DNA of 45,227 bases from a virus (taxonomy: Duplodnaviria; Caudoviricetes): positions 1-45,227 of IMG/VR virus record IMGVR_UViG_3300036943_000278; one strand, given 5' to 3'. Within the stretch, counting starts at the first letter, position 1, and the number at the start of each line of letters is the position of its first letter. Of this stretch, positions 2,114-45,227 are shown one piece after another. The notes beneath the pieces were generated by a model. It saw only the letters and a list, made by a program, of their open reading frames with translations, was not told where the DNA came from and made no database searches. Both the position numbers and the translations under genes were made by a program.

Positions 2114-3378
2114 CCCGTATCCTGCTTACGATCCTGCTGTGCCTGACGGCCCTGCCCGCCCTGGCGACCGACCCGCTCATGGATTGGGAATCAGAAGAGC
2201 TTGCCACATTCGTCCGCTCGGGCACGGCCACCTACATCGACGCGGACGGTATCATGCAGACCGCCGCAGAAAACGAGCCGCGCTTGCAGTTGGTTACGGG
2301 CAACGGATTGGCGCTGCTGTTGGAGGGGGCGGCGACCAATAAATTGCTATACTCTCATCTCAAAGCGGGTGGCAGCAGCAGCAGTTCATACTATGTGAAT
2401 TATAGCGCGATTAGAGCAGGGTATACAACAGGACCAGATAATGTGAGCGACTCTGCGGTTATCTTCGAGTTTCCTACAGGAGGAATGGAAATAGCCTTTT
2501 ATCGGTTTGATGATAATATCCCAGCGGGAGGAGCTGCTACTTTTTCAGTGTGGGTCAAATCATTTGATTTGTCTCAAGCGAACCAGTTGCAGTTTGCAGG
2601 GCAAATGCATGACTTAACAACCGAATGGCAACGGATAGTTGTAACAGCTTATGATGGAGAAAGCCCAAATAGTTATATAAGTGCGTATTTAGACGGAGGC
2701 AGTACTCCTGCTGGAACTCAAATAGCCCTAGCATTCGGTCAAACTGAGGAACACCCTTTTGCCACTGAGTATATTCCTACTACAAGCTCCATTGCCTCCC
2801 GCGCCACCGAGGCCGCCGACGCCACGGGCAACGGCTGGTCGTTCGCCCTGGCCGACAATCCGGCCTTGGCCACCATATTCGCAAGCGCTGGGCGTTGCGA
2901 GTTCACATTCATTCCCGGCCACGACCTGACGCACATCTCGGGTAATCCCGGCCTCATCTCCGTGGGCGACGGCGCGGATCTGGTGTTCATCGACGGCTCC
3001 GGCATCGCGTCTAGCGACGGCACGACCAACGCTACTAAGGCTGTGAGTTACGAGTCGGGCACCTCATACGACATTTCCGTACGCTGGGGCGGCGGCAAAA
3101 TGGCCGTGAGCGTGGACGGGACCGAGGGCACAGAGCAGGATTTCGACGGTAGTTTCAGCCCCGGCACTCACCTGCGCCTTTCCTGGGCCAATCCCTATCC
3201 GTGGCAGATTTCGGGCCTCGCTTTCTACGACGCGGCCACGGGCGGGGATCGGGTGGCGTACTGGCCGTTTAACGGATCCGAGTATGTGGAAGATGGCGAC
3301 GACACCACCGACGCCGGGGTGTTTCGTACATTTACACATAATCATATACCAAACCCATTAAGAAGCCCTCTTCGCTAA
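2107..3378 (+). CDS. Tail-fibre/adhesin-like beta-sandwich (CBM/ConA-like) protein with Sec signal peptide
   Basis: MVARILLTILLCLTALPALA/TD leader after a GAGGGG RBS; motifs FVRSGTATYIDADG...NEPR...LLLEGAATNKLLYS and FGQTEEHPFATEYIPTT resemble phage fibre proteins. Confidence 0.7.
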   Translation: MVARILLTILLCLTALPALATDPLMDWESEELATFVRSGTATYIDADGIMQTAAENEPRLQLVTGNGLALLLEGAATNKLLYSHLKAGGSSSSSYYVNYSAIRAGYTTGPDNVSDSAVIFEFPTGGMEIAFYRFDDNIPAGGAATFSVWVKSFDLSQANQLQFAGQMHDLTTEWQRIVVTAYDGESPNSYISAYLDGGSTPAGTQIALAFGQTEEHPFATEYIPTTSSIASRATEAADATGNGWSFALADNPALATIFASAGRCEFTFIPGHDLTHISGNPGLISVGDGADLVFIDGSGIASSDGTTNATKAVSYESGTSYDISVRWGGGKMAVSVDGTEGTEQDFDGSFSPGTHLRLSWANPYPWQISGLAFYDAATGGDRVAYWPFNGSEYVEDGDDTTDAGVFRTFTHNHIPNPLRSPLR

Positions 3379-3399
3379 CTCACACAAGTAGGTTCCATC

Positions 3400-3741
3400 A
3401 TGACGCTATCTACTGATGACCGTACTGAATTATCCAAGCTCGTAGGTGAAAGTGTCCAGGAAGCAATGCGGCAGTATACACCCATATGCCCCTGTAACCT
3501 TGATGAGGAATCTCTCAAGCATGTGGGCCATTTCTTCGGAATGCTTCGCGATATTGGTGAGGGCGATGTAGGCAAGGGATGCGAACGCATGCGCGATGTG
3601 GCCGATGCCTACAAACGAGGTGCCTGGATTGCGGAGAAGGTTGGATGGGCAATTATTATCACCATAGTTGCTGGCACACTAGGCTTACTTTGGGGGATAA
3701 TCAAAGTAGGTATGGCTGTAAAGACAGGTATAGGAGGCTAA
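3400..3741 (+). CDS. Small membrane protein with one C-terminal TM segment, possibly lysis-related
   Basis: VGWAIIITIVAGTLGLLWGII hydrophobic segment. Confidence 0.65.
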   Translation: MTLSTDDRTELSKLVGESVQEAMRQYTPICPCNLDEESLKHVGHFFGMLRDIGEGDVGKGCERMRDVADAYKRGAWIAEKVGWAIIITIVAGTLGLLWGIIKVGMAVKTGIGG

Positions 3742-5820: not shown

Positions 5821-5835
5821 GTAATTCAAGATTAC
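5821..5835. promoter_or_regulatory. Dispersed palindrome copy 2 (GTAATTCAAGATTAC)
   Basis: Lies between the TerL stop (5819) and the next ATG (5845). Confidence 0.85.
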
Positions 5836-6292: not shown

Positions 6293-8260
6293 ATGCCAGT
6301 TACAGTACAAGGAAATAACCGCAATGCATCGAAGGGCAATATTGATGCAGCTAAGCGGGCCAATTTCAACTATGATTATCCTTACAACCTTGACCTACAT
6401 CCACGGTCAAAGTTGCACAAGAAACTTGTGGATAAAATTCTCGAACTCGCTCGCGTAGCGAATGAGGAAAAGAACAAAAGAAAAGATGAATGGGACAAGA
6501 CGGATGATACCCTATCTGCCTACATCCCCCTCAGTGTGGCCGAACAAAAGCTAAAGACAAAAGATGTCACTAAGCCCACAGCCATCGTGGTGCCCTATTC
6601 CTACGCAACACTGGAGACATTGCTCACATATCTAATGATGGCTTTTGTGATGCAACGACCAATGTTCCAGTATGAAAGTGTTTCAACGGAAGATACCATT
6701 GCGGTGAAACTCCTGGAAGTGCTAGTGCAGCGCCAAGTCGAACATCTCAAAGTTCCTCTATCCACCTACGCATGGTGGCGGGATGGGCTTGGTTATGGCA
6801 TCGGTGCGGTGGCTCCGATATGGACCACTGAGCGTCGACAAGTGACGGAAACTAGGGAAGTGGAAAAGCAAACCCTCACGGGTAATACCATTATCGAAAA
6901 CGAAACCGTGAGGGAAAGCCGAATTGTATTTGAAGGTTCGAAGGTTAAGAACATCGGCCCACGTTACCTCCTCCTCGACCCGAACGTATCCGCGCATAAT
7001 ATACAGTCCGGGGAATTTGTGGGCTGGATTGAAGAAACCAATCAACAACAATTGTTGAAGAAAGAACAGACTCCTAAAACTCCTTGGATCAACGCGAAGT
7101 ATGTGCATACAGCTGGGCCTGTAGCATCTCAATACACCGTTACAGATAACTTCTATAAGTCCACGGATGGCCTCAAACCTTTAACCATCCTTCATATGTA
7201 TGTTGATCTTCTACCAAGAGAATGGGATTTGCCCGGCGCGGAAGGAAATGAGGATGGTTACTACCCGGAAACCTGGTTATTCTCTGTCGCTGATGATTGG
7301 TGCATCGTCAGTATCGATAGGGATGATTCTAGCCATGGCAAGAAACCCTTCGCCATCAATGCACCAGACTATGATGGTTATAGCACCTATCCGCTCAGCC
7401 GGATTGAAATAATTAATGGCCTCCAGGATGTATTAAACTGGTTATTTAATAGCCACATTGCGAACGTCCGCAAAGTCGTGAATAACCAACTCATCGTTGA
7501 TCCTTCACAGGTACGAGTGGAAGATCTCAAAAAAGGCCGCGAGGGTGGAATTATTCGCTTGAAGTCCAGTGCTTGGGGGAAAGACGTGCGTACCGCCGTA
7601 TCCCAACTCCAAGTCACTGACGTAACACGTGGGCACATCGCGGATGCCGATGCTGTTATATCCATGATGCAACGTGTTGGTGCGGCGACTGATAATATTA
7701 TGGGCATCCCAAGGCAAGGTGGAGAACGGCACAGTGCAACTGAAGCTCGCGCCGTAGCCACCTCTGCGACCAACAGGCTCGAAAAGATTGCTTCACTTAT
7801 ATCCTGGCAAGGGATGCAAGATTTGTCCATGTTCATGGCTATGAATACACAAGACTACATGGAAATGGAATTGAAGCGTAAAGTGCTGGGTAACTGGCCC
7901 ACGGAGCTTATACAGGAATATCAAATTGGCAATGATGTTCAGATTAACCCTGACATCATCAACGTCCCATTTGACATCTCGCTTCGTGATGGTTCTCTAC
8001 CGGTCGACACCTCTGGTGTAGCTGAGTCATGGATTCAACTTCTCCAGACAGGTATGTCCGTTCCACAAATTGGGCAAACATTAGATTTCCCAAGGGTCTT
8101 CCTCCACATTGCCCGTTTACTCGGCGCGAAGAACGTCAACGACTTTATGATCCAACCTGGCGTACAAACCCAAATTCTCCCTGACGAGACCGCTATGAGG
8201 GAACTCGAAAAGGGTAACATTGTAAAACCACAGGACGCCGCTGATGCCAAAAACAGATGA
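6293..8260 (+). CDS. Portal protein (podovirus type)
   Basis: 655 aa following the terminase; DGLGYGIG, RYLLLDPN and ERHSATEA portal-like motifs. Confidence 0.88.
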   Translation: MPVTVQGNNRNASKGNIDAAKRANFNYDYPYNLDLHPRSKLHKKLVDKILELARVANEEKNKRKDEWDKTDDTLSAYIPLSVAEQKLKTKDVTKPTAIVVPYSYATLETLLTYLMMAFVMQRPMFQYESVSTEDTIAVKLLEVLVQRQVEHLKVPLSTYAWWRDGLGYGIGAVAPIWTTERRQVTETREVEKQTLTGNTIIENETVRESRIVFEGSKVKNIGPRYLLLDPNVSAHNIQSGEFVGWIEETNQQQLLKKEQTPKTPWINAKYVHTAGPVASQYTVTDNFYKSTDGLKPLTILHMYVDLLPREWDLPGAEGNEDGYYPETWLFSVADDWCIVSIDRDDSSHGKKPFAINAPDYDGYSTYPLSRIEIINGLQDVLNWLFNSHIANVRKVVNNQLIVDPSQVRVEDLKKGREGGIIRLKSSAWGKDVRTAVSQLQVTDVTRGHIADADAVISMMQRVGAATDNIMGIPRQGGERHSATEARAVATSATNRLEKIASLISWQGMQDLSMFMAMNTQDYMEMELKRKVLGNWPTELIQEYQIGNDVQINPDIINVPFDISLRDGSLPVDTSGVAESWIQLLQTGMSVPQIGQTLDFPRVFLHIARLLGAKNVNDFMIQPGVQTQILPDETAMRELEKGNIVKPQDAADAKNR

Positions 8261-8525
8261 ACGTAGCATTGAGGAACAACTGGCTGAGTTTGAAGAACAG
8301 TACATGGATTGGCAAGACCATCCGTACACAAGAAAATTCTTGGCCTATTGCAATGAGCGTATGGAAACACTGGTTAATCAAATAGTAAACGAAGATGATG
8401 AAAAATCAATCTTCCGTATACAAGGGAAATTGCAGGAACACAGTCATCTTGCCAATCTCCCTGCTATAATCATTGCAGATTTAGAAGCCGATCTCAAAGA
8501 TGCCGCTGAAGAAGGAGACGAATGA
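8244..8525 (+). CDS. Small helical protein following portal
   Basis: IFRIQGKLQ motif and typical post-portal position. Confidence 0.65.
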   Translation: MPKTDERSIEEQLAEFEEQYMDWQDHPYTRKFLAYCNERMETLVNQIVNEDDEKSIFRIQGKLQEHSHLANLPAIIIADLEADLKDAAEEGDE

Positions 8526-10021
8526 TGGCCCTTGATCCAACCAAACCACTGGATACTGTTCCCATCAAGGATTTACCCAGCTACATCCGGGAAACTCGTG
8601 AGTATATTGAGGACCGCTGGGTTAACAATGTCTCATTCGAATCGGGTGTGTCTGACAACGAGCCTGTGTATTATGACACAGCTACGGGTACATGGAAACA
8701 ATCTCTCGATGGTGATGCGAATCGGGGATTTTTCCATGGTTTTGCTGACGTGACCAACTCGAGAGTTGTCCTGTATGGCACTATTGAAAATGACACTTGG
8801 GATTGGACTGCCACGTCCACAATCTATGTGTCAGATTCAGTGCAGGGTGGCTTGACAGAAGTCGACACTGGCCTCCCTGTTGGTGTCGCAGTAACAGCAA
8901 CGGAGATACTCATTGATACACAGCTCAATGTTGGTGTATCGGACATTGTTGCGGAAATCACTGCAGCTCGCGGTGGTGAGGTAGATCTGGATACACGCCT
9001 TGACAATATTGAGTCTGACGTAGCCACCAACGAGAGTGACCTCGATGTAGTTGAAGCGGAAATTATCGCTGGGCGTGGTGGGGAGGTTAATCTTGATACA
9101 CGCTTTGATAATATCGAAACTGAAATCACCGCGGCGCGTGGGGGTGAATCCGATCTAGACACTCGTTTAGACGGCATTGACGATGAAATATCTGCTATTG
9201 ATACAATACTCCCCGCCTTGACTGGGCATGCCAATAAAGTAGCCCTAGTAAAGGATGATGAATCTGGTTTTGAGTGTATAGCACTCACTGCCGGAGATGG
9301 TATTGCAATTGCGGCTGATGGGGTTACTATCTCTACTGACGTAGATTATTTACCTCTCACTGGAGGTACACTAACGGGTAATCTCACTCTCGATGATGGT
9401 GTTACAAATTCACCTTATCTGCAATGGGTTGGTGGCACCAATGATGATACTATCAGCCTCCGTTTAATTGAAGGTGGTAGTGTTAACACTAGTGTGTTAG
9501 AAATGATATTGTGTGATAATGGGGGCAACTCTCAATTTCGTATAGACAGTGCAGATGGAACAGAAGTGTTCAAGGTCACATCTGCGGGGGATTTAACCAT
9601 TACTGGTGCACTTTCAAAAGGTTCTGGCACATTCAAGATTCCGCATCCCTTAGATGAAACAAAACATTTATATCATGGCTTTATTGAAGGTCCTCGATAT
9701 GACTTGATATATCGTGGTACGGTGGTACTTGTTGATGGCCAGGCTGAAGTAAATATAGACACGGTAAGTGGAATGACTGCGGGTACATTCGAGGCACTTA
9801 CCCAAAATGCTGAAGTTCTTGGTCTCCATAACAAAGATTCCTTTGATCGTGTAAGGGGCGAAATTTCCGGGGCAACCCTAATCATTTACTGTGAGGATGA
9901 GACTAGCACCGACGAAATTAATTGGGCTATAATTGCCGAGCGTGCTGATACCCATATCCTTGCCTTAGATATAACTGACGAAAATGGTTGTCTTATTCCT
10001 GAACAGGATAAGGAGGAATAG
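8522..10021 (+). CDS. Tail fibre protein
   Basis: Three coiled-coil repeats EITAARGGEVDLDTRLDNIE, YLPLTGGTLTGNL motif, C-terminal SKGSGTFKIPHPL domain. Confidence 0.8.
   Translation: MMALDPTKPLDTVPIKDLPSYIRETREYIEDRWVNNVSFESGVSDNEPVYYDTATGTWKQSLDGDANRGFFHGFADVTNSRVVLYGTIENDTWDWTATSTIYVSDSVQGGLTEVDTGLPVGVAVTATEILIDTQLNVGVSDIVAEITAARGGEVDLDTRLDNIESDVATNESDLDVVEAEIIAGRGGEVNLDTRFDNIETEITAARGGESDLDTRLDGIDDEISAIDTILPALTGHANKVALVKDDESGFECIALTAGDGIAIAADGVTISTDVDYLPLTGGTLTGNLTLDDGVTNSPYLQWVGGTNDDTISLRLIEGGSVNTSVLEMILCDNGGNSQFRIDSADGTEVFKVTSAGDLTITGALSKGSGTFKIPHPLDETKHLYHGFIEGPRYDLIYRGTVVLVDGQAEVNIDTVSGMTAGTFEALTQNAEVLGLHNKDSFDRVRGEISGATLIIYCEDETSTDEINWAIIAERADTHILALDITDENGCLIPEQDKEE
8954..9182 (+). 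repeat. Intragenic coding repeat (three ~20 aa units)
   Basis: Peptide repeat with diverged synonymous codons. Confidence 0.8.
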
Positions 10022-10023
10022 AT

Positions 10024-10410
10024 ATGGAACGCTTCAATCTTTCTCTCCCCATCGGTTATGTAGAATCCACTGTGTGGAATCCTATGGGTAAACTCGGCAA
10101 GAATGTGTTTGCCGCATTTAGCCGTACACAGCCCATCATTTGGTATTTCCCACGCTGGTGGATGTTCCCTATCTGGTGGGCTATTAAGCCCATCATTCGC
10201 AACCACGAGCGTGGCCATGCTTGGGGACTCAAGGGTTGCCAAAGTACTGATCGTCGGTGCATTATGCTGGAAGAATCCCAGATCGGTAAGAAGGAAACAC
10301 TCTGGGCAAAGTTCACCATGTTGCCCAGACAAGCAATCTTTGGCCGTGGCCGATTCTGTAGTGCTTGCGCTAGAGAACTTCGTAAAGCCTTGAAAGAGGA
10401 GGAAATGTAA
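10024..10410 (+). CDS. Archaemetzincin-like zinc metalloprotein
   Basis: HERGHAWGLKGC-x6-CIM ... FCSAC signature. Confidence 0.6.
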   Translation: MERFNLSLPIGYVESTVWNPMGKLGKNVFAAFSRTQPIIWYFPRWWMFPIWWAIKPIIRNHERGHAWGLKGCQSTDRRCIMLEESQIGKKETLWAKFTMLPRQAIFGRGRFCSACARELRKALKEEEM

Positions 10411-10940
10411 TGTTGCCGCTCATCGCCGCTGGTTTAGGTACATTAGCTAAAGCCGCAGTGACTGCCGCTGGGGCTAAAGCTGGTGACTGGATTAAGGAAA
10501 AAACGGGCGTGGATGTCAATGAGTACATGGATGGCAAACAGGCAATTCCGCCAGAAATTCAGCAACAACTAATGCAATACCAACTTGAGCATGAAGAAGA
10601 ACTTGCTCGGTTGGCGAAGGAATGGGACGTGGCCCAAATGGATGCCAGAACAGAACGCCATAAGACGGATATGTTATCCGACTCGTGGCTGTCTAAAAAT
10701 ATCCGGCCGCTGGCATTTGGCACCGTGGTTCTCCTGTTCTGTTATGCCATTGCCGATGAGTCTATTGACCAAACAAAAACGGAGATGGTCAAAGACGTGG
10801 TGATCTGGTTTGGTTCCTTCTACTTCACCTTGCGTACAGTCTTTGACAAACGATATAAATCAAATGCCCCTGCTGATACCATCGGTGGTATTCCTGCAGA
10901 AGCCATTAAGTCATTGAAAAGTTATTTTAAACGTGGTTAG
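10410..10940 (+). CDS. Holin (GTA 3TM-holin-like)
   Basis: DSWLSKNIRPL motif plus hydrophobic segments; close to the endolysin. Confidence 0.75.
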   Translation: MLPLIAAGLGTLAKAAVTAAGAKAGDWIKEKTGVDVNEYMDGKQAIPPEIQQQLMQYQLEHEEELARLAKEWDVAQMDARTERHKTDMLSDSWLSKNIRPLAFGTVVLLFCYAIADESIDQTKTEMVKDVVIWFGSFYFTLRTVFDKRYKSNAPADTIGGIPAEAIKSLKSYFKRG

Positions 10941-11352
10941 AGCCTCCTGGCTACAACATAAAGGAGATCTCCAATGCGGAAGTTTTTCAAGCGCGCGCTT
11001 GCGGTTCTGGCAATCCTGAGCATCTTGGCTGTGGGGACAGCTACGCTTGTTCCCGCTGCGCGGGTGCCAATTCAGGAGTTCATCAAGATCAACTACAACA
11101 AGATCATTATGTCATTGTATAATACCCATACCGAAGCTATTCAGCGGGTATTTGGGTATGAGACCAATGGCACTGTGGGCTGTATCTGGTGGTTTGCTGA
11201 TTCTACCAATGCTACCCGGGACAAGGCATATTTGTGTGTTGACATCGCCGAAGATGGTAGCTTCGAAAATGCCACGATGGATACCGTACCGCCCTGGGAT
11301 GGTGCGGCTAGCGCTACTAGCATTTCGGACTAAGTAACAGGAGGCTCTAGCC
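10935..11352 (+). promoter_or_regulatory. Long-range inverted repeat (10935-10949 / 11338-11352) covering the holin stop and the endolysin RBS
   Basis: GGTTAGAGCCTCCTG pairs with CAGGAGGCTCTAGCC: 14 Watson-Crick pairs plus one G-U on the + strand RNA. Confidence 0.7.
10974..11333 (+). CDS. Secreted hypothetical protein
   Basis: AAGGAG RBS; MRKFFKRALAVLAILSILAVGTA signal peptide. Confidence 0.75.
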   Translation: MRKFFKRALAVLAILSILAVGTATLVPAARVPIQEFIKINYNKIIMSLYNTHTEAIQRVFGYETNGTVGCIWWFADSTNATRDKAYLCVDIAEDGSFENATMDTVPPWDGAASATSISD

Positions 11353-11697
11353 ATGTCTTTAGTCGCTGAACAGAACAAGTTCTTGCAAGATGTTGTAAAG
11401 CTCCTCGTAAAAGCATGGGAAATGGGCTTTACCGTTACAGCAGGAGAAGTCTATCGGCCAACGGAAATGCAGGCAATTTATGTGAAAACAGGTAGATCTA
11501 ACACCATGCATAGTAAGCACAACCTACGCCTTGCAATAGATCTCAATATATTCAAGGACGGCCAGCTTACCTATGATCCTGAAATCATTGCTCCTTTAGG
11601 AACGTATTGGCAAAGTCTTTCGAGGAAAAACAAATGGGGTGGTAACTTTTCGACATTGAAGGACACACCCCATTTCGAACGCAATCCCTGGGCGTAA
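11353..11697 (+). CDS. Endolysin, peptidase M15 family
   Basis: SKHNLRLAIDL (SxH-x6-D) and WGGNF...DTPHFE motifs. Confidence 0.9.
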   Translation: MSLVAEQNKFLQDVVKLLVKAWEMGFTVTAGEVYRPTEMQAIYVKTGRSNTMHSKHNLRLAIDLNIFKDGQLTYDPEIIAPLGTYWQSLSRKNKWGGNFSTLKDTPHFERNPWA

Positions 11698-11708
11698 TTC
11701 AGGATTAC
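11694..11708. promoter_or_regulatory. Dispersed palindrome copy 3 (GTAATTCAGGATTAC)
   Basis: Overlaps the endolysin stop codon, upstream of the scaffold gene. Confidence 0.85.
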
Positions 11709-11728
11709 ACCATAATGGAGGTTTTATC

Positions 11729-12583
11729 ATGGGCGCGGAAGGATTAGCACAGTTTCTTGGTGGATCAGCCAACGACACCAAGCCTGACAATGGCACGGCG
11801 ACTCCTGAAGATTCCACTTCTCTAGAAGACAAGGAAGTGGTTGACACCGAGGAGACCCTGGAATCGGACGACGACCTCGAGGAAGTCGAGGATGTGGACG
11901 ATGACGATGATGACGAGCCAGAAACTCCCACCCTTAGCCCCGACATATTGGAGCTTAAGGGTATGGTTTCCGAGCTTGTTAAAAGTCAAGTCCAGGCCAA
12001 GTCCAAAACAGACACTACTGATGAGGGCGACCAGGATGATATTCCTGTCTACCAGTTTTTCTCCGACGAAGAAGCCGAGAAACTCTTCGAAGACAGGGAT
12101 ATCTCCATGTTGAATACGGCCATGTCCAGATCAATGCATGCTACGCAACAGCAGGTTTTATCCGCGTTGCCTCAGATCATGCGCAAGCAAGTTCCAGCTA
12201 TGGTACAGGAAATGCTCACCGTTGAACGGTTCTATGACAGGAATCCGGATTTGCTCGATCATCGGCAACATCTGGCTCTCCATGCAGAAAAAGTTCAACG
12301 GGAGAATCCTGGCCTCAGTGCGAACGAGTTGCTTGATAAGGCTGCAAAGTCTTTTCGCAAAGCGTTCGGAATGCCTGAGCCTAACAAACAGGGCAGCAAA
12401 GAAAAGCCCAAAACTCCCGAGTCCTCCGGGCAAGCGGCTAAGAAGAAACGTAAGCCGAAGACGCAAGCGGATGGTGTGGGAGGCAAGGCAGGTGGGCCGA
12501 ACAAGTCTGAGCCAAAGTCGACAGAAGGAGCATCCAAGCACATCGACTCTATGCTTGATTATGTCCGTGGCACGAGGAAGTAG
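11729..12583 (+). CDS. Capsid scaffolding protein
   Basis: Acidic N-terminus, helical core, located directly before the MCP. Confidence 0.7.
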   Translation: MGAEGLAQFLGGSANDTKPDNGTATPEDSTSLEDKEVVDTEETLESDDDLEEVEDVDDDDDDEPETPTLSPDILELKGMVSELVKSQVQAKSKTDTTDEGDQDDIPVYQFFSDEEAEKLFEDRDISMLNTAMSRSMHATQQQVLSALPQIMRKQVPAMVQEMLTVERFYDRNPDLLDHRQHLALHAEKVQRENPGLSANELLDKAAKSFRKAFGMPEPNKQGSKEKPKTPESSGQAAKKKRKPKTQADGVGGKAGGPNKSEPKSTEGASKHIDSMLDYVRGTRK

Positions 12584-12620
12584 TACGCCGCTGTAACGTA
12601 CTAATTAAGGAGAACATATA

Positions 12621-13910
12621 ATGGCTCTTGACATTCTCACTGGCATGATGTACTCGTCCGGGTGGAATGATACTGATCGTCGTCCGATGAACTGGCGGGA
12701 AACCATTTCGTACCTGTACCCCAATGGCAAAGCTCCGCTCACGGCTCTTCTTGGCCTCATTGATGGCAAGGAACTGACCGACGACGCGCAGTACCATTGG
12801 TGGACCAAGACCCTGGTCGAAAAAGGCATTAATGTCGCGGGCATCTACAGCGACGCCAGTCTCACTACTGCCTATAACCCGTCCGGAGAAAGCTCCATTG
12901 CGGCCATTGGCGATACGTTGTATCTCGACATTGACGACGATGACAACGCCAGCGATGACTACAAGAAGTTCCGCGCTGGTCAAACCATCATGCTCGTTGA
13001 CAAGGACGATACGCAGTATCGCTTCGTAGCTATGATCGACGAAGTGTCGTCCACCCAAATGACCATCACCATGCTCACTGCCGGCGACTGGCAAACTACC
13101 AAGTGTGAACTGGAAGATGTTGACCGAGCGCTCGTTGTTGGTAACGCTAACGAGGAAGGTGCTGGAATTCCCGACATCATCACCTTTGAGCCTGTGAAGT
13201 ACTACAACTACACGCAGATCTTCCGCACACCTATCGGCATCACCCGTACGGGTAAGAAGACCCGTCTGCGTACTGGTAACCAGGTCGAGCAGGCTAAGAA
13301 GGAAGCCCTGGAAGATCACTCTGTTGATCTCGAAATGGCCTTCCTTTTCGGTTCTCGCTCGGAGCGCACTGGTCCCGGTGGTATGCCCATTCGCACCACG
13401 GATGGTATTTACCATTTCAAGGACAAGGACGACGAGCTGGTCGTGCCCCGTGCGGCCTTCTCGGGCACCTGGGCAGGTACGGAAACTTCCAATGGTTATT
13501 ACTGGTTGATGACCCAACTGGAAATCCTCTTCCGTTACGGTTCGGATACCAAGATTTGCTTCTGCGGTAACGGCGCCTTGCTGGGCATCAACTGGGCCGC
13601 AGCGGGCAACCATGACCTCACCATCGAAGGTGTGAAGACCGACTTTGGTATGAACTTCCAGCAAATGACCACTCCGTTTGGGCAGGTCATGTTCAAGACC
13701 CATCCGAAGTTCAACCAGACCACGCATCTCCGCAAGCTCTGTATGTTCCTCGACCCGGCGAACCTCAACTACCGCTACATTGATGACACCGACTACTACC
13801 CCGAGCGTCAAGCCAATGACATCGACGGCGAAAAGTCGGAGTACCTGACTGAAGCGGGCCTGGAACTCCACCACGGCGAGACCTTCCGTATCTTGGAGAA
13901 CGTCGGCTAA
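12621..13910 (+). CDS. Major capsid protein (DUF5309/SU10-like)
   Basis: YNYTQIFRT, DLEMAFLFG, TPFGQV and YLTEAGLE motifs; strong RBS and biased codon usage. Confidence 0.92.
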   Translation: MALDILTGMMYSSGWNDTDRRPMNWRETISYLYPNGKAPLTALLGLIDGKELTDDAQYHWWTKTLVEKGINVAGIYSDASLTTAYNPSGESSIAAIGDTLYLDIDDDDNASDDYKKFRAGQTIMLVDKDDTQYRFVAMIDEVSSTQMTITMLTAGDWQTTKCELEDVDRALVVGNANEEGAGIPDIITFEPVKYYNYTQIFRTPIGITRTGKKTRLRTGNQVEQAKKEALEDHSVDLEMAFLFGSRSERTGPGGMPIRTTDGIYHFKDKDDELVVPRAAFSGTWAGTETSNGYYWLMTQLEILFRYGSDTKICFCGNGALLGINWAAAGNHDLTIEGVKTDFGMNFQQMTTPFGQVMFKTHPKFNQTTHLRKLCMFLDPANLNYRYIDDTDYYPERQANDIDGEKSEYLTEAGLELHHGETFRILENVG

Positions 13911-28557: not shown

Positions 28558-31011
28558 TTATGACTTATTGTGTACATCATCCCACGCTTTCTTGATGAGG
28601 GCAGGATCAGCGGCTTTGATCTCTACCATACCGTTAGGATTTTGCTCGGATTGGCGTCCCCAGTTATAGCCAATCTTGAAATCAATACCAATGGTAAACT
28701 CACGGCCATCCTTTCCAGTCAATTGGATAGTCATGAGTTCCTCAAGGCGGGGGATGATATAGAGTGCATTGTCGAGGGTTGCGGGGAATTGGTTTAACAA
28801 AGAGTCATGCACTGTGCCGAGAAGCTGAAAGTCACGCTCGTAGAGATCATCTGCTTGCGTGATCTTCACTAATGCACGGTTGAGTACCTCCGCAACGGTG
28901 GACTGTGGCTTGAAGGCATAGGCAGCTTTGAAAGTGTGGTCATTGAGCATACCTAAGAATAACCGATGCCGTCCGAATAGGTTCAATAAACGACGTGAAC
29001 GGGTGAGTTCTTCTCGAATACTGTTATGCCAGCGGCGAAGTCCAGGGTAGCGGGAATGATACGCATTTAACAGGAGCTTCGCTTCTCGTTCCGGCAACTC
29101 AGTTTGTAAGGCGAATGTTTTATACCCCATGTCATAGTTAGACGCGTGGACAACTTTCTTCCCAAGTTGTCGTTGGTCTTGCATTACCTGATCCATAGTA
29201 ACGTCAAAGATGTTTGAGGCATTGTAGGTGTGGACATCCACGCCGGATTCAAATCCCTCAATCATCTTTTCATCCCCGGCAAGGTAAGCTACCACTACGG
29301 CTTCGGCTTGTTTCTCGTCAGCTTCGAGCATAATGTAGCCGTCATCTGCGTGGTAATAGGGCTTGATTGCAGGGGGTTGATTTTGTAGATTTGTGCCTGT
29401 ACCAAACAACGTGGAGCTAGATGACAGTCGCCCAGTTTCTGTTCCCGCGATGTTGTAAGAACATCGGAGGCGACCGTCACTATCTGCTCGGTTGACCAAA
29501 TAGGTAGATGATAGCTTTTTATATTTACGTATTGACTGAATCAATGTGGCTTCTTCATAACCACGCCGAGATAGTCGTTTGAGTGCGGTGTCATCAGTGG
29601 TCCAATTGCCTGTTTTTCTGTTGGTGTAGGGCTTGATCTTTTTTTCCACATAGAAATAATGCTGGAGCTGTTTGGACGAGTTGGGATTCAATTCCTTCCC
29701 GGCCATTTCATTGAGTTGCTTCTGCATTTCTACTACGGCTTTATCCGTAGCTTCCTTGAGTTGCTGGATGCCCACACGATCTGTGCGTATGCCACGGTAT
29801 TGCATTTCCATTAGTGGGGTATGAAGATCCATGAGAAACCAGAATTCCGTCAATTGGCCATAAGATTCTAACTCATTCATAAGAGTGGGGTAGAGCTCAT
29901 GCACATACGCGGCGTCTTTGCAATTGTATTGCCAGAAACGTGTGTAATCAGACACATTGCGCCAGTCTTTGCCCTCGTCCTTATAATATGGGTGGGTGGT
30001 GTAGTAACTGACCAATGCGTCGAGGCCTTTTGGCAACTCAGCATAGCACAAATGATGTGCCAACATGGAATCGAATGTGAAATTGTTGGTGAGAATAGAC
30101 ATGGTTCGGAGGAGGAACGTGAAGTCAAACATGCCATTCTGGGCGAACTTAGAAATCTGTGGGTCGGATAGAATTTTAGAGATGAGTTCCCATATGATAA
30201 CTTCTTCATCTTCTGTGAAGTAATGCCCCTCGGGGCCGTAGAATGGAATACACATTACTTGATCCGCCCTGCCTTTGGTGAAGGCAATGCAGGAAGTCTG
30301 TGTATTACGAAGTTCGATATCTACGGACGTTGTGAGTTTACGATTATAAATTTCCTCCAACCATGCATAGGCTTCATCAAATGTAGGACTAATATGCATG
30401 TTGATGACTGGCTCATTGAAGCCATGCTCAACAATATGGATGGCCTTTGTCAAATCGATCTGCAATACAAATTGCATCTTCGGGTCACGGTAGCCAATAC
30501 AGCGAGCGGGGTGGATGGTGCAGAGTAACACTTTACCTGCCAACTTGGTGTGTTTGTCGCCGAGCCATTGCACAATAGCCGGATCGTTGTGGGCATAAAT
30601 GCTACCACGATATTTATCCACATGGACATTTCCAGTGAGTGCATGTAATGGTGTTTCACCACAAAGGATCACTACCTTGGCAGAGCTTCGCTCAATTGTA
30701 TCGAGTAAGCGATCAAGCAGAGCTGTCCATGCTTCATGGTGGAAACCCTTGCGGGTCCATAGTTTACTCGTATTGTTTTTTGGTATTTGTGTCTGGCAAA
30801 AGTTATCTATGTAGCACTTCGTTCGTGGGATGCCTACATAGGACAGGGCCATGTCTAATCGTGTACCAGCCTGCCCAGTGAAAGGTACGCCAGACTGCAT
30901 CTCAGTCACACCGGGTGCTTCGCCTACAATGAAGTAATCACAATGGCCCAAATCACCAGAGCCATACACATCAGTTTCTAGAGGATCCCACTCAGTCCTA
31001 GCGGCAAACAT
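28558..31011 (-). CDS. polA: Family A DNA polymerase with N-terminal uracil-DNA glycosylase-like domain and 3'-5' exonuclease
   Basis: IVGEAPG...PFTGQAG and TIHPA (UDG family 4-like); SVDIE, QNGMFD, YNCKD (exonuclease); TGRLSS, ADEKQAE, KKVVHASNY, TVHDS (polymerase). Start moved to the ATG at 31011 after AAGGAG. Confidence 0.93.
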   Translation of the reverse strand: MFAARTEWDPLETDVYGSGDLGHCDYFIVGEAPGVTEMQSGVPFTGQAGTRLDMALSYVGIPRTKCYIDNFCQTQIPKNNTSKLWTRKGFHHEAWTALLDRLLDTIERSSAKVVILCGETPLHALTGNVHVDKYRGSIYAHNDPAIVQWLGDKHTKLAGKVLLCTIHPARCIGYRDPKMQFVLQIDLTKAIHIVEHGFNEPVINMHISPTFDEAYAWLEEIYNRKLTTSVDIELRNTQTSCIAFTKGRADQVMCIPFYGPEGHYFTEDEEVIIWELISKILSDPQISKFAQNGMFDFTFLLRTMSILTNNFTFDSMLAHHLCYAELPKGLDALVSYYTTHPYYKDEGKDWRNVSDYTRFWQYNCKDAAYVHELYPTLMNELESYGQLTEFWFLMDLHTPLMEMQYRGIRTDRVGIQQLKEATDKAVVEMQKQLNEMAGKELNPNSSKQLQHYFYVEKKIKPYTNRKTGNWTTDDTALKRLSRRGYEEATLIQSIRKYKKLSSTYLVNRADSDGRLRCSYNIAGTETGRLSSSSTLFGTGTNLQNQPPAIKPYYHADDGYIMLEADEKQAEAVVVAYLAGDEKMIEGFESGVDVHTYNASNIFDVTMDQVMQDQRQLGKKVVHASNYDMGYKTFALQTELPEREAKLLLNAYHSRYPGLRRWHNSIREELTRSRRLLNLFGRHRLFLGMLNDHTFKAAYAFKPQSTVAEVLNRALVKITQADDLYERDFQLLGTVHDSLLNQFPATLDNALYIIPRLEELMTIQLTGKDGREFTIGIDFKIGYNWGRQSEQNPNGMVEIKAADPALIKKAWDDVHNKS

Positions 31012-31252
31012 ACATGGACTCCTTGTCATCATAGTCGATGTTGATAATTTTATCACACTTGGTGCAGATGACTGATGTAGTGCGCATCTTGGTGGCCTTG
31101 GATAATGTGACGTCACCCCAGGTAAAGACAGGGATGTTCTTATCACCGTTGAAATAAAGCCGGTGTGTGCCGAACTCAAAGGTCAGCGGCACATACACGT
31201 GGTTACACGCTACCGGAGTCTTCGTCGCTGGCTTGGTTGTCTTGGTTGTCAT
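30998..31252 (-). CDS. Small putative Zn-binding protein
   Basis: CNH...CTKC ligands; GGAG RBS. Confidence 0.6.
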   Translation of the reverse strand: MTTKTTKPATKTPVACNHVYVPLTFEFGTHRLYFNGDKNIPVFTWGDVTLSKATKMRTTSVICTKCDKIINIDYDDKESMYVCR

Positions 31253-33365: not shown

Positions 33366-33801
33366 TTTTCATCTCCTTGGTTATGGTGTAATTCGAGATT
33401 ACGCGCTTGGTTGGCGTGATTACATATTCCAATATAGTATGGTCGTCATGGAGATTATAGTAATTCATGGCACGTTTAGCGCCTTTGAAAGTTCTGTATA
33501 TGTAGCCCGTGGGAGAATATTGTGTGGGCTGCTTGGGGGCAAAAAAGAGTTGTGTATCATCGTGTTGTATACGGTAGACATACGCAGGACAATTCATGCA
33601 TATTTTCGTGCCTGCTTTGGTAGTGCAATAACCACTGATGTATGTTTTGTTACGACGAATGAGTTTCTTTTCCACTAGACGACGCAAAAGCCTTTCCCCA
33701 TAGGTACGATTGCAGGCGTGTTCGGATATTATTTTTGTCATGGCTTTCTGGGTTGCAAAAATATCCCGTAAAAATTTTATCTCAATATTACCAATCTTCA
33801 T
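33358..33801 (-). CDS. Hypothetical protein with winged-helix-like N-terminus
   Basis: LLRRLVEKKLIRR...YCTTKAG pattern; AT-rich. Confidence 0.5.
   Translation of the reverse strand: MKIGNIEIKFLRDIFATQKAMTKIISEHACNRTYGERLLRRLVEKKLIRRNKTYISGYCTTKAGTKICMNCPAYVYRIQHDDTQLFFAPKQPTQYSPTGYIYRTFKGAKRAMNYYNLHDDHTILEYVITPTKRVISNYTITKEMKNG
33388..33402. promoter_or_regulatory. Dispersed palindrome copy 6 (GTAATTCGAGATTAC)
   Basis: Minus strand reads gcGTAATCTCGAATTACac, 22 nt upstream of the 33365 start. Confidence 0.85.
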
Positions 33802-44942: not shown

Positions 44943-44950
44943 GCGGCCCC

Positions 44951-45007
44951 GTAGTCAGTCCGTTGACTAGTCAACCCGTCAACCCCGTCAATAGTCAGTA
45001 GTCAACC
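44951..45007 (-). repeat. Inverted counterpart of the TGACTA array, with GTTGACTAGTCAAC at 44962-44975
   Basis: Reverse complement reads ggttgactactgactattgacggggttgacgggttgactagtcaacggactgactac, closely resembling 114-160. Confidence 0.85.
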
Positions 45008-45082
45008 GCCCCCGGTTTGGGCCGCCGGGTGGCGTCCTTATAGTGGTATGCTCTTATAGTGGTAGTATGTCCTTATAAGAGA

Positions 45083-45227
45083 TTTTTTAATAGCACCCAA
45101 ACCCCCCCCTCTAAATATATCCCTATACAACAACACACCCCTACACAACCACACTAACACTATCCCACACCACCCGCGCCCCCAAAACCCCCCCGGTTGA
45201 CTATTGACTACTGACTACGTTGACTAG
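45083..45227. repeat. Terminal direct repeat, right copy
   Basis: Copy of 1-146; indicates a complete genome (physical DTR or circular overlap). Confidence 0.95.

Follow-up and report, generated by a model that had tools for sequence, protein, structure and literature searches.

Long-range base pairing within an mRNA is already known to couple the translation of neighbouring genes. In UTNI, described for rplJL, atpHA and the infC operon, coupling is achieved by upstream translation and new initiation via long-range pairing (PMC6728339). In the RNA phage MS2, the Min Jou pairing, which is 7 nt in length and located early in the coat gene, controls the replicase (PMC11339067). Control can also jump over a gene, as in the E. 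coli alpha operon, where rplQ is regulated together with the upstream ribosomal genes while rpoA, which lies between them, is not; the mechanism of this gene-jumping control is not settled, the repressor being the protein uS4, for whose route to rplQ strong evidence is lacking according to a review (PMC10931766). In phage T4, the start of the endolysin gene e is locked in an RNA helix, a guard against premature lysis enzyme (PMC3014915).

In our analysis of the window (the whole 45,227-bp contig, features of which are collected in Table 1), we found a helix of 19 uninterrupted base pairs that spans the stop codon of a holin-like gene on one arm and holds the Shine-Dalgarno (SD) sequence, spacer and AUG of the endolysin gene on the other. 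The initial annotation had reported two complementary 15-mers, GGTTAGAGCCTCCTG at 10935-10949 and CAGGAGGCTCTAGCC at 11338-11352, which pair with one U-G; they do so at exactly these places, and the full helix (10931-10949 / 11338-11356) has 4 pairs beyond the earlier 15. Because the helix runs these 4 pairs further out, the endolysin AUG is paired as well, so that the pairing described for the SD and the spacer up to the ATG extends over the start codon itself. The helix is composed of 10 G-C, 7 A-U and 2 G-U pairs (17 Watson-Crick), and the loop that it closes, of 388 nt, holds a complete gene. In the left arm, 10 of the 19 bases lie within the holin-like frame including its stop, so that the arm draws on upstream coding sequence as UTNI pairing does, and the 9 non-coding bases that follow carry the anti-SD CCTCCTG.

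As in UTNI, the downstream start pairs with a part of an upstream gene, whose translation would, according to the folding models, free the start. In contrast to UTNI, the two partners here are not adjacent genes: the loop contains a complete gene with an initiation of its own, and the pairing is one uninterrupted 19-bp helix centred on the stop codon. The likeness to MS2 lies in a long-distance pairing of phage mRNA that would be opened by the ribosomes of an upstream gene (modelled here), whereas the pairing in the window is of 19 bp, lies at a stop codon in the lysis cassette of a DNA phage and covers the SD and AUG directly. Like the alpha operon, control would skip an intervening gene, but in place of the protein repressor uS4 an explicit helix here offers the mechanism. 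The resemblance to T4 gene e is that the endolysin SD and AUG lie inside an RNA helix, as a putative guard against premature lysis enzyme. No such element in a lysis cassette was found among the matches listed from the open-access literature. We consider it fairly probable, from folding and comparison, that the helix provides a long-range translational coupling which skips an independently translated orphan gene and replaces the usual stop-start overlap.

Table 1. Positions of the cassette genes, helix arms, predicted local structures and flanking repeated sites in the window.
Feature	Position	Strand	Remarks
GTAAT-N5-ATTAC	5821..5835	+	ahead of the portal module
Gene overlapping the holin-like start	10024-10410		
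Holin-like gene, 176 aa	10410..10940	+	start overlaps upstream stop (TAATG)
Left arm	10931..10949	+	last holin-like codons and TAG (10931-10940), then 9 non-coding bases
Left-arm local hairpin, predicted	10933..10954	+	8 bp, AGCCUC in the loop (local fold of 10925-10975)
Middle-gene SD AAAGGAG	10960..10966	+	in the helix loop, predicted open
Middle gene, 119 aa, orphan	10974..11333	+	hydrophobic N-terminal helix, two cysteines
Second local lock, predicted	11328..11364	+	11328-11334 with 11358-11364, in folds that lack the long helix
Right arm	11338..11356	+	SD CAGGAGG, spacer, AUG and next base of the endolysin gene
M15-family endolysin, 114 aa	11353..11697	+	Pfam PF13539, PHROG 465
GTAAT-N5-ATTAC	11694..11708	+	overlaps the endolysin stop; ahead of the scaffold-position and major capsid genes

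The window is of a tailed phage, with SU10-type portal and capsid genes, a terminase, a family A polymerase and a ligase found in the ORF profile scans, and its sequence is present in oil-field metagenome runs. The cassette is located with a fibre-like gene on one side and the gene ahead of the capsid on the other. From portal to holin, the genes overlap or lie within 2 nt of each other, and this chain is broken at the middle gene. The gene at 10410-10940, earlier called a holin, matches PHROG 3427 'holin' (E 7e-9), but its match to Pfam GTA_holin_3TM (PF11351; 21.7 bits, E 3e-4) falls below the gathering score of 24.8, and we therefore label it holin-like. The gene at 11353-11697, labelled endolysin, passes Peptidase_M15_4 (PF13539; 37.1 bits, E 5e-9, gathering score 25) and matches PHROG 465 (E 4e-18). 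The holin-like stop and the endolysin start are separated by 412 nt and one gene, and are hence not a stop-start overlap of the termination-reinitiation type; both genes are on the same strand, and a consensus scan found no terminator-like site between them. The product of the gene at 10024-10410 carries HExxHxxG and cysteines, with a weak archaemetzincin match (E 0.0097, far below the cut-off) and M54 peptidases as structural neighbours (TM about 0.65, below the naming threshold); it is possible that a zinc protease heads the lysis cassette.

Ahead of the middle gene is a 33-nt leader that contains an SD for this gene. The middle protein is predicted to be exported or membrane-anchored; it has no family match in Pfam or PHROG, no homologue was found, viral contigs included in the search, and a protein atlas gave no usable feature match and, as best structure, a cluster without a name at a TM of 0.54. 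The structure model (pLDDT 55, low confidence; helix 5-23) gave no structure match at E 0.001. An embedded spanin was considered for the +1 frame at 11047-11337 and rejected, the frame being without a family match and, by eye, without a lipobox. A ribosome hop from the last Gly codon of the holin-like gene was likewise rejected, as there is no matching in-frame Gly codon before the endolysin start.

The initial annotation had proposed folding 10900-11400 in silico, and this fold bears it out: the helix is present in both the minimum-energy and the centroid structures, the region is unusually stable (z = -4.31; 0/100 shuffles as stable), and the pairing probability of the helix is about 0.99 in the folding model. 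When both strands of the genome were scanned for helices whose arms are at most 3 kb from each other, this one was the longest. None of 60 third-order Markov genomes had a 19-bp helix within 1 kb, and the analytic expectation was 0.009 per genome strand for such a helix and 2e-7 for the endolysin start region alone against 1 kb upstream. In 3.2 Mb of other loci, scanned on the + strand only, there were 9 helices of at least 19 bp (up to 3 G-U), so that long helices are commoner in real DNA than in the chance model. Of 13 helices inspected, none ran from a stop codon to the SD and AUG of a later gene, and one proved to be a palindromic DNA site in two copies. The excess of long helices, together with the very many windows scanned, in which rare coincidences are to be expected, and the lack of visible conservation where there are no alignable relatives, would favour a chance match without function. 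We hold such a match to be highly unlikely. The figure of 2e-7 stands before requiring that the partner be the stop of the gene which overlaps the endolysin in relatives, and an accidental block of 25 kcal/mol on the start of a lysis gene would presumably be costly.

The helix is not an assembly artefact, because contigs of metagenome run X4, which may share a campaign with the window, span both arms in the same orientation with 0 differences. In the 8 metagenome runs that were compared, of 14, we found no variant in either arm and no inverted or deleted joint, these contigs being of low depth, so that rare forms could have been dropped; gaps near the arms in low-depth contigs were left out of the evidence. 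There is one diverged strain (X14), whose contigs do not reach the arms. In Rfam, 4 weak matches were obtained for 10000-12700, all far below the gathering score.

These data also bear on whether the arms are DNA sites, either marking where a cassette that inverts or was inserted ends, or forming a two-orientation protein-binding site, with the RNA pairing incidental. A single orphan gene lies between the arms, both of which have the palindromic core GGYT-NN-AGCC, and a 21-bp 'helix' in another locus, L001, was such a repeated palindromic site. On the other hand, the arms have two mismatches at the DNA level, and both positions (G10933-U11354 and U10937-G11350) are G-U pairs when read on the coding + strand, against A-C on the - strand. 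Besides the failure to find inverted or deleted forms, there is no evident target duplication at the ends, no recombinase was found among the main ORFs scanned (a host enzyme could serve), and the looser core pattern occurs only 4 times, with the other two occurrences lacking AGCC. We give DNA sites a very low probability, slightly lower than that of chance. The earlier argument that the wobble points to selection at the RNA level gains from both mismatched positions being G-U on the + strand, but it is a modest one, as it has two positions.

We compared the usual arrangement of holin and endolysin genes in related phages. The best relatives had identities of 49% for the capsid, 37% for the holin-like protein and 61% for the endolysin, with none for the middle gene, and no close relative was found in searches of the middle and holin-like proteins against viral contigs, of the DNA against phage records, or with the capsid. 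In 161 capsid-family loci, the profiles matched 0 (holin), 5 (endolysin) and 0 (middle gene) times, and the 12 loci obtained when searching with the repeated late-gene motif have no protein in common with the window. Two annotated records that carry the endolysin, which lie outside the helix scans, gave no lead to a stem. From 264 loci including the window, 73 had both holin and endolysin genes, and removal of duplicates and of 5 loci with the endolysin upstream left 62 other cassettes. Here, the two genes overlap by 4 nt in 50, otherwise overlap or abut in 6, have a 27-nt gap in 1 and an inserted gene in 5; these counts are not independent because many of the loci, largely of related freshwater phages, are related to one another. 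The 5 inserted genes are of three kinds (an HNH gene and two kinds of small gene); they overlap both neighbours, and no long stem is found there. In locus L023, for example, the HNH gene (2926-3423) has a 4-nt overlap at each end. In the nearest syntenic phage found (L265), the same position holds an overlapping DUF5675 gene and a second gene without a family, which may be read, by position, as the lysis genes.

A long-range helix of at least 15 Watson-Crick pairs occurred at 0 of 194 other holin 3' ends, so the stem is not a family trait; the helix is a singleton, and its support is computational. The overlaps in the relatives, taken together with the helix in the window, thus suggest that across the family the endolysin start stays linked to upstream translation, with a helix instead of the overlap in the window phage. 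For the same gene pair, the predicted outcome is the same as that of the stop-start overlap in the related cassettes, but here 412 nt and one gene lie between. The helix would thereby show how an operon can accept a new gene and yet keep an old coupling, and stop-to-SD helices seem worth scanning for in phage genomes.

To open the endolysin start from -16 to +12, the folding model required 24.6 kcal/mol, in comparison with 4.5-15.2 for 31 other starts, which makes it the most occluded of the 32 starts tested in the window phage. It is also the most closed of 70 distinct homologous starts, the other 69 having a median of 8.7 and a maximum of 15.9 kcal/mol. The start of the middle gene requires 7.3 kcal/mol. 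The bacterial mRNA channel extends 11 nt past the first P-site base (PMC7282821), and therefore a ribosome at the holin-like stop would cover up to 10946 and leave 0 of the 19 pairs, whereas a ribosome at the middle-gene stop would reach 11339, remove 2 pairs and leave 17. In equilibrium folding under these constraints, with co-transcriptional kinetics and polysomes outside the model, the cost of opening the endolysin start was 12.1 kcal/mol with a footprint at the holin stop, 20.6 at the middle-gene stop and 7.8 at both. Keeping the middle gene open over its full length, or raising the temperature to 55 °C, did not remove the helix from the predicted fold. As computed, the helix dominates the fold and is abolished by the holin-stop footprint but not by the middle-gene footprint. 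The coupling of holin and endolysin that had been claimed thus agrees with the geometry, which suits a ribosome standing at the holin stop rather than at that of the middle gene, and with the overlaps that couple the genes in relatives; the dependence itself is a modelled one.

A helix of this size could instead be an RNase III site or a fixed damper, which would lower endolysin, and maybe free the middle-gene mRNA, regardless of holin ribosomes. With a few further flanking pairs predicted, the near-perfect 19-bp duplex is close to the roughly 22 bp of duplex that RNase III holds (PMC6212723). We consider this unlikely. The left arm straddles a stop codon that is translated and would thus be stripped by each ribosome finishing the holin-like gene, and a cut would hit the SD or the last part of that gene. 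In addition, G-C pairs, which make up 10 of the 19, are inhibitory at some positions for RNase III of E. coli (PMC1540722) and may be so here.

According to the coupling that we favour, the three cassette genes would share one late mRNA, on which the helix stays shut while the holin-like gene is idle, leaving the endolysin untranslated. A ribosome reaching the holin-like stop would unzip the helix and free the endolysin start, while the middle gene would be translated from its own open SD, independent of the helix. Endolysin output would then follow holin translation, as a stop-start overlap would ensure in the relatives. The 12.1 kcal/mol remaining after the holin footprint alone is still above that of a typical start and fits the local hairpin 11328-11334 / 11358-11364, the first strand of which holds the stop of the middle gene. 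This weaker hairpin is predicted to take over once the helix opens, and therefore full access to the endolysin start may need both genes to be translated. Conceivably, a gene-skipping coupler replaced an ancestral overlap when an independent gene moved in, and together with the second hairpin forms a two-input gate for holin and middle gene, a tentative extension that we regard as rather doubtful. If true, it would explain control across an intervening gene by a sequence-explicit model with one helix. By itself, the left arm can fold into a local hairpin whose loop contains part of the anti-SD; a wider local window gave a better fold than this hairpin, which would form before the long helix as transcription proceeds.

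In canonical cassettes, the holin, and not the amount of soluble endolysin, sets the time of lysis. Because of this, the helix more likely sets the amount of endolysin than the timing of lysis, and the 'lysis-timing control' of the initial annotation is probably too strong; control of endolysin dosage and of leak would be the more likely purpose, rather than a lysis clock. For the design of operons, such a coupler would offer a compact part that links genes 1 and 3 while gene 2 stays free, and, being a single 19-bp helix, it is cheaply testable with reporters.

The palindrome GTAAT-N5-ATTAC occurs in 7 exact copies in the window (at 291, 5821, 11694, 17416, 33388, 39429 and 44710), usually with GC before and ACC after it. 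Four of the 7 copies are located just ahead of the starts of module-heading genes (5845, 11729, 17443 and a minus-strand gene near 33370), and it is likely a late promoter or regulator site of the phage; the unit with the cassette likely begins at the copy that precedes the portal module. A promoter between the arms would allow a switch of the T4 gene e type, in which the endolysin start is locked in long transcripts and a promoter acting later yields RNAs that lack the left arm. T4 lysozyme is controlled in this way (PMC3014915), removal of the left arm lowers the opening cost of the endolysin start to 12.8 kcal/mol, and the middle-gene leader contains TACAACATAA, alike in 9 of 10 positions to TACACCATAA, which follows two copies of the repeated site. 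Nevertheless, the interval between the arms has no copy of GTAAT-N5-ATTAC, also when one mismatch is allowed, the first left-arm window in the ranking had a negative score (rank 1682/90402), and no sigma-70-like site was found between them on the + strand, a consensus that may not be that of this phage's promoters. The switch also leaves the position of the arm across the holin stop unexplained, and we deem it improbable, about as much so as a chance match.

Several minor observations were made in the course of these scans. In L001, palindromic TGTTC-N7-GAACA sites at 7430-7450 and 8398-8418 each lie directly before a gene start, and are perhaps the counterpart of the repeated site of the window. 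At the ends of the window (44950-45227 and 1-150), which overlap, there are repeated TAGTCAGTAGTCAA-type elements in both orientations, possibly an origin or packaging region. L265 has a 16-bp helix (11343-11358 / 11512-11527), in which the SD of a post-capsid gene pairs with its own coding sequence 153 nt on; this could be by chance. The family A DNA polymerase ORF of the window (28558-31179) has a uracil-DNA-glycosylase-family domain before the exonuclease.
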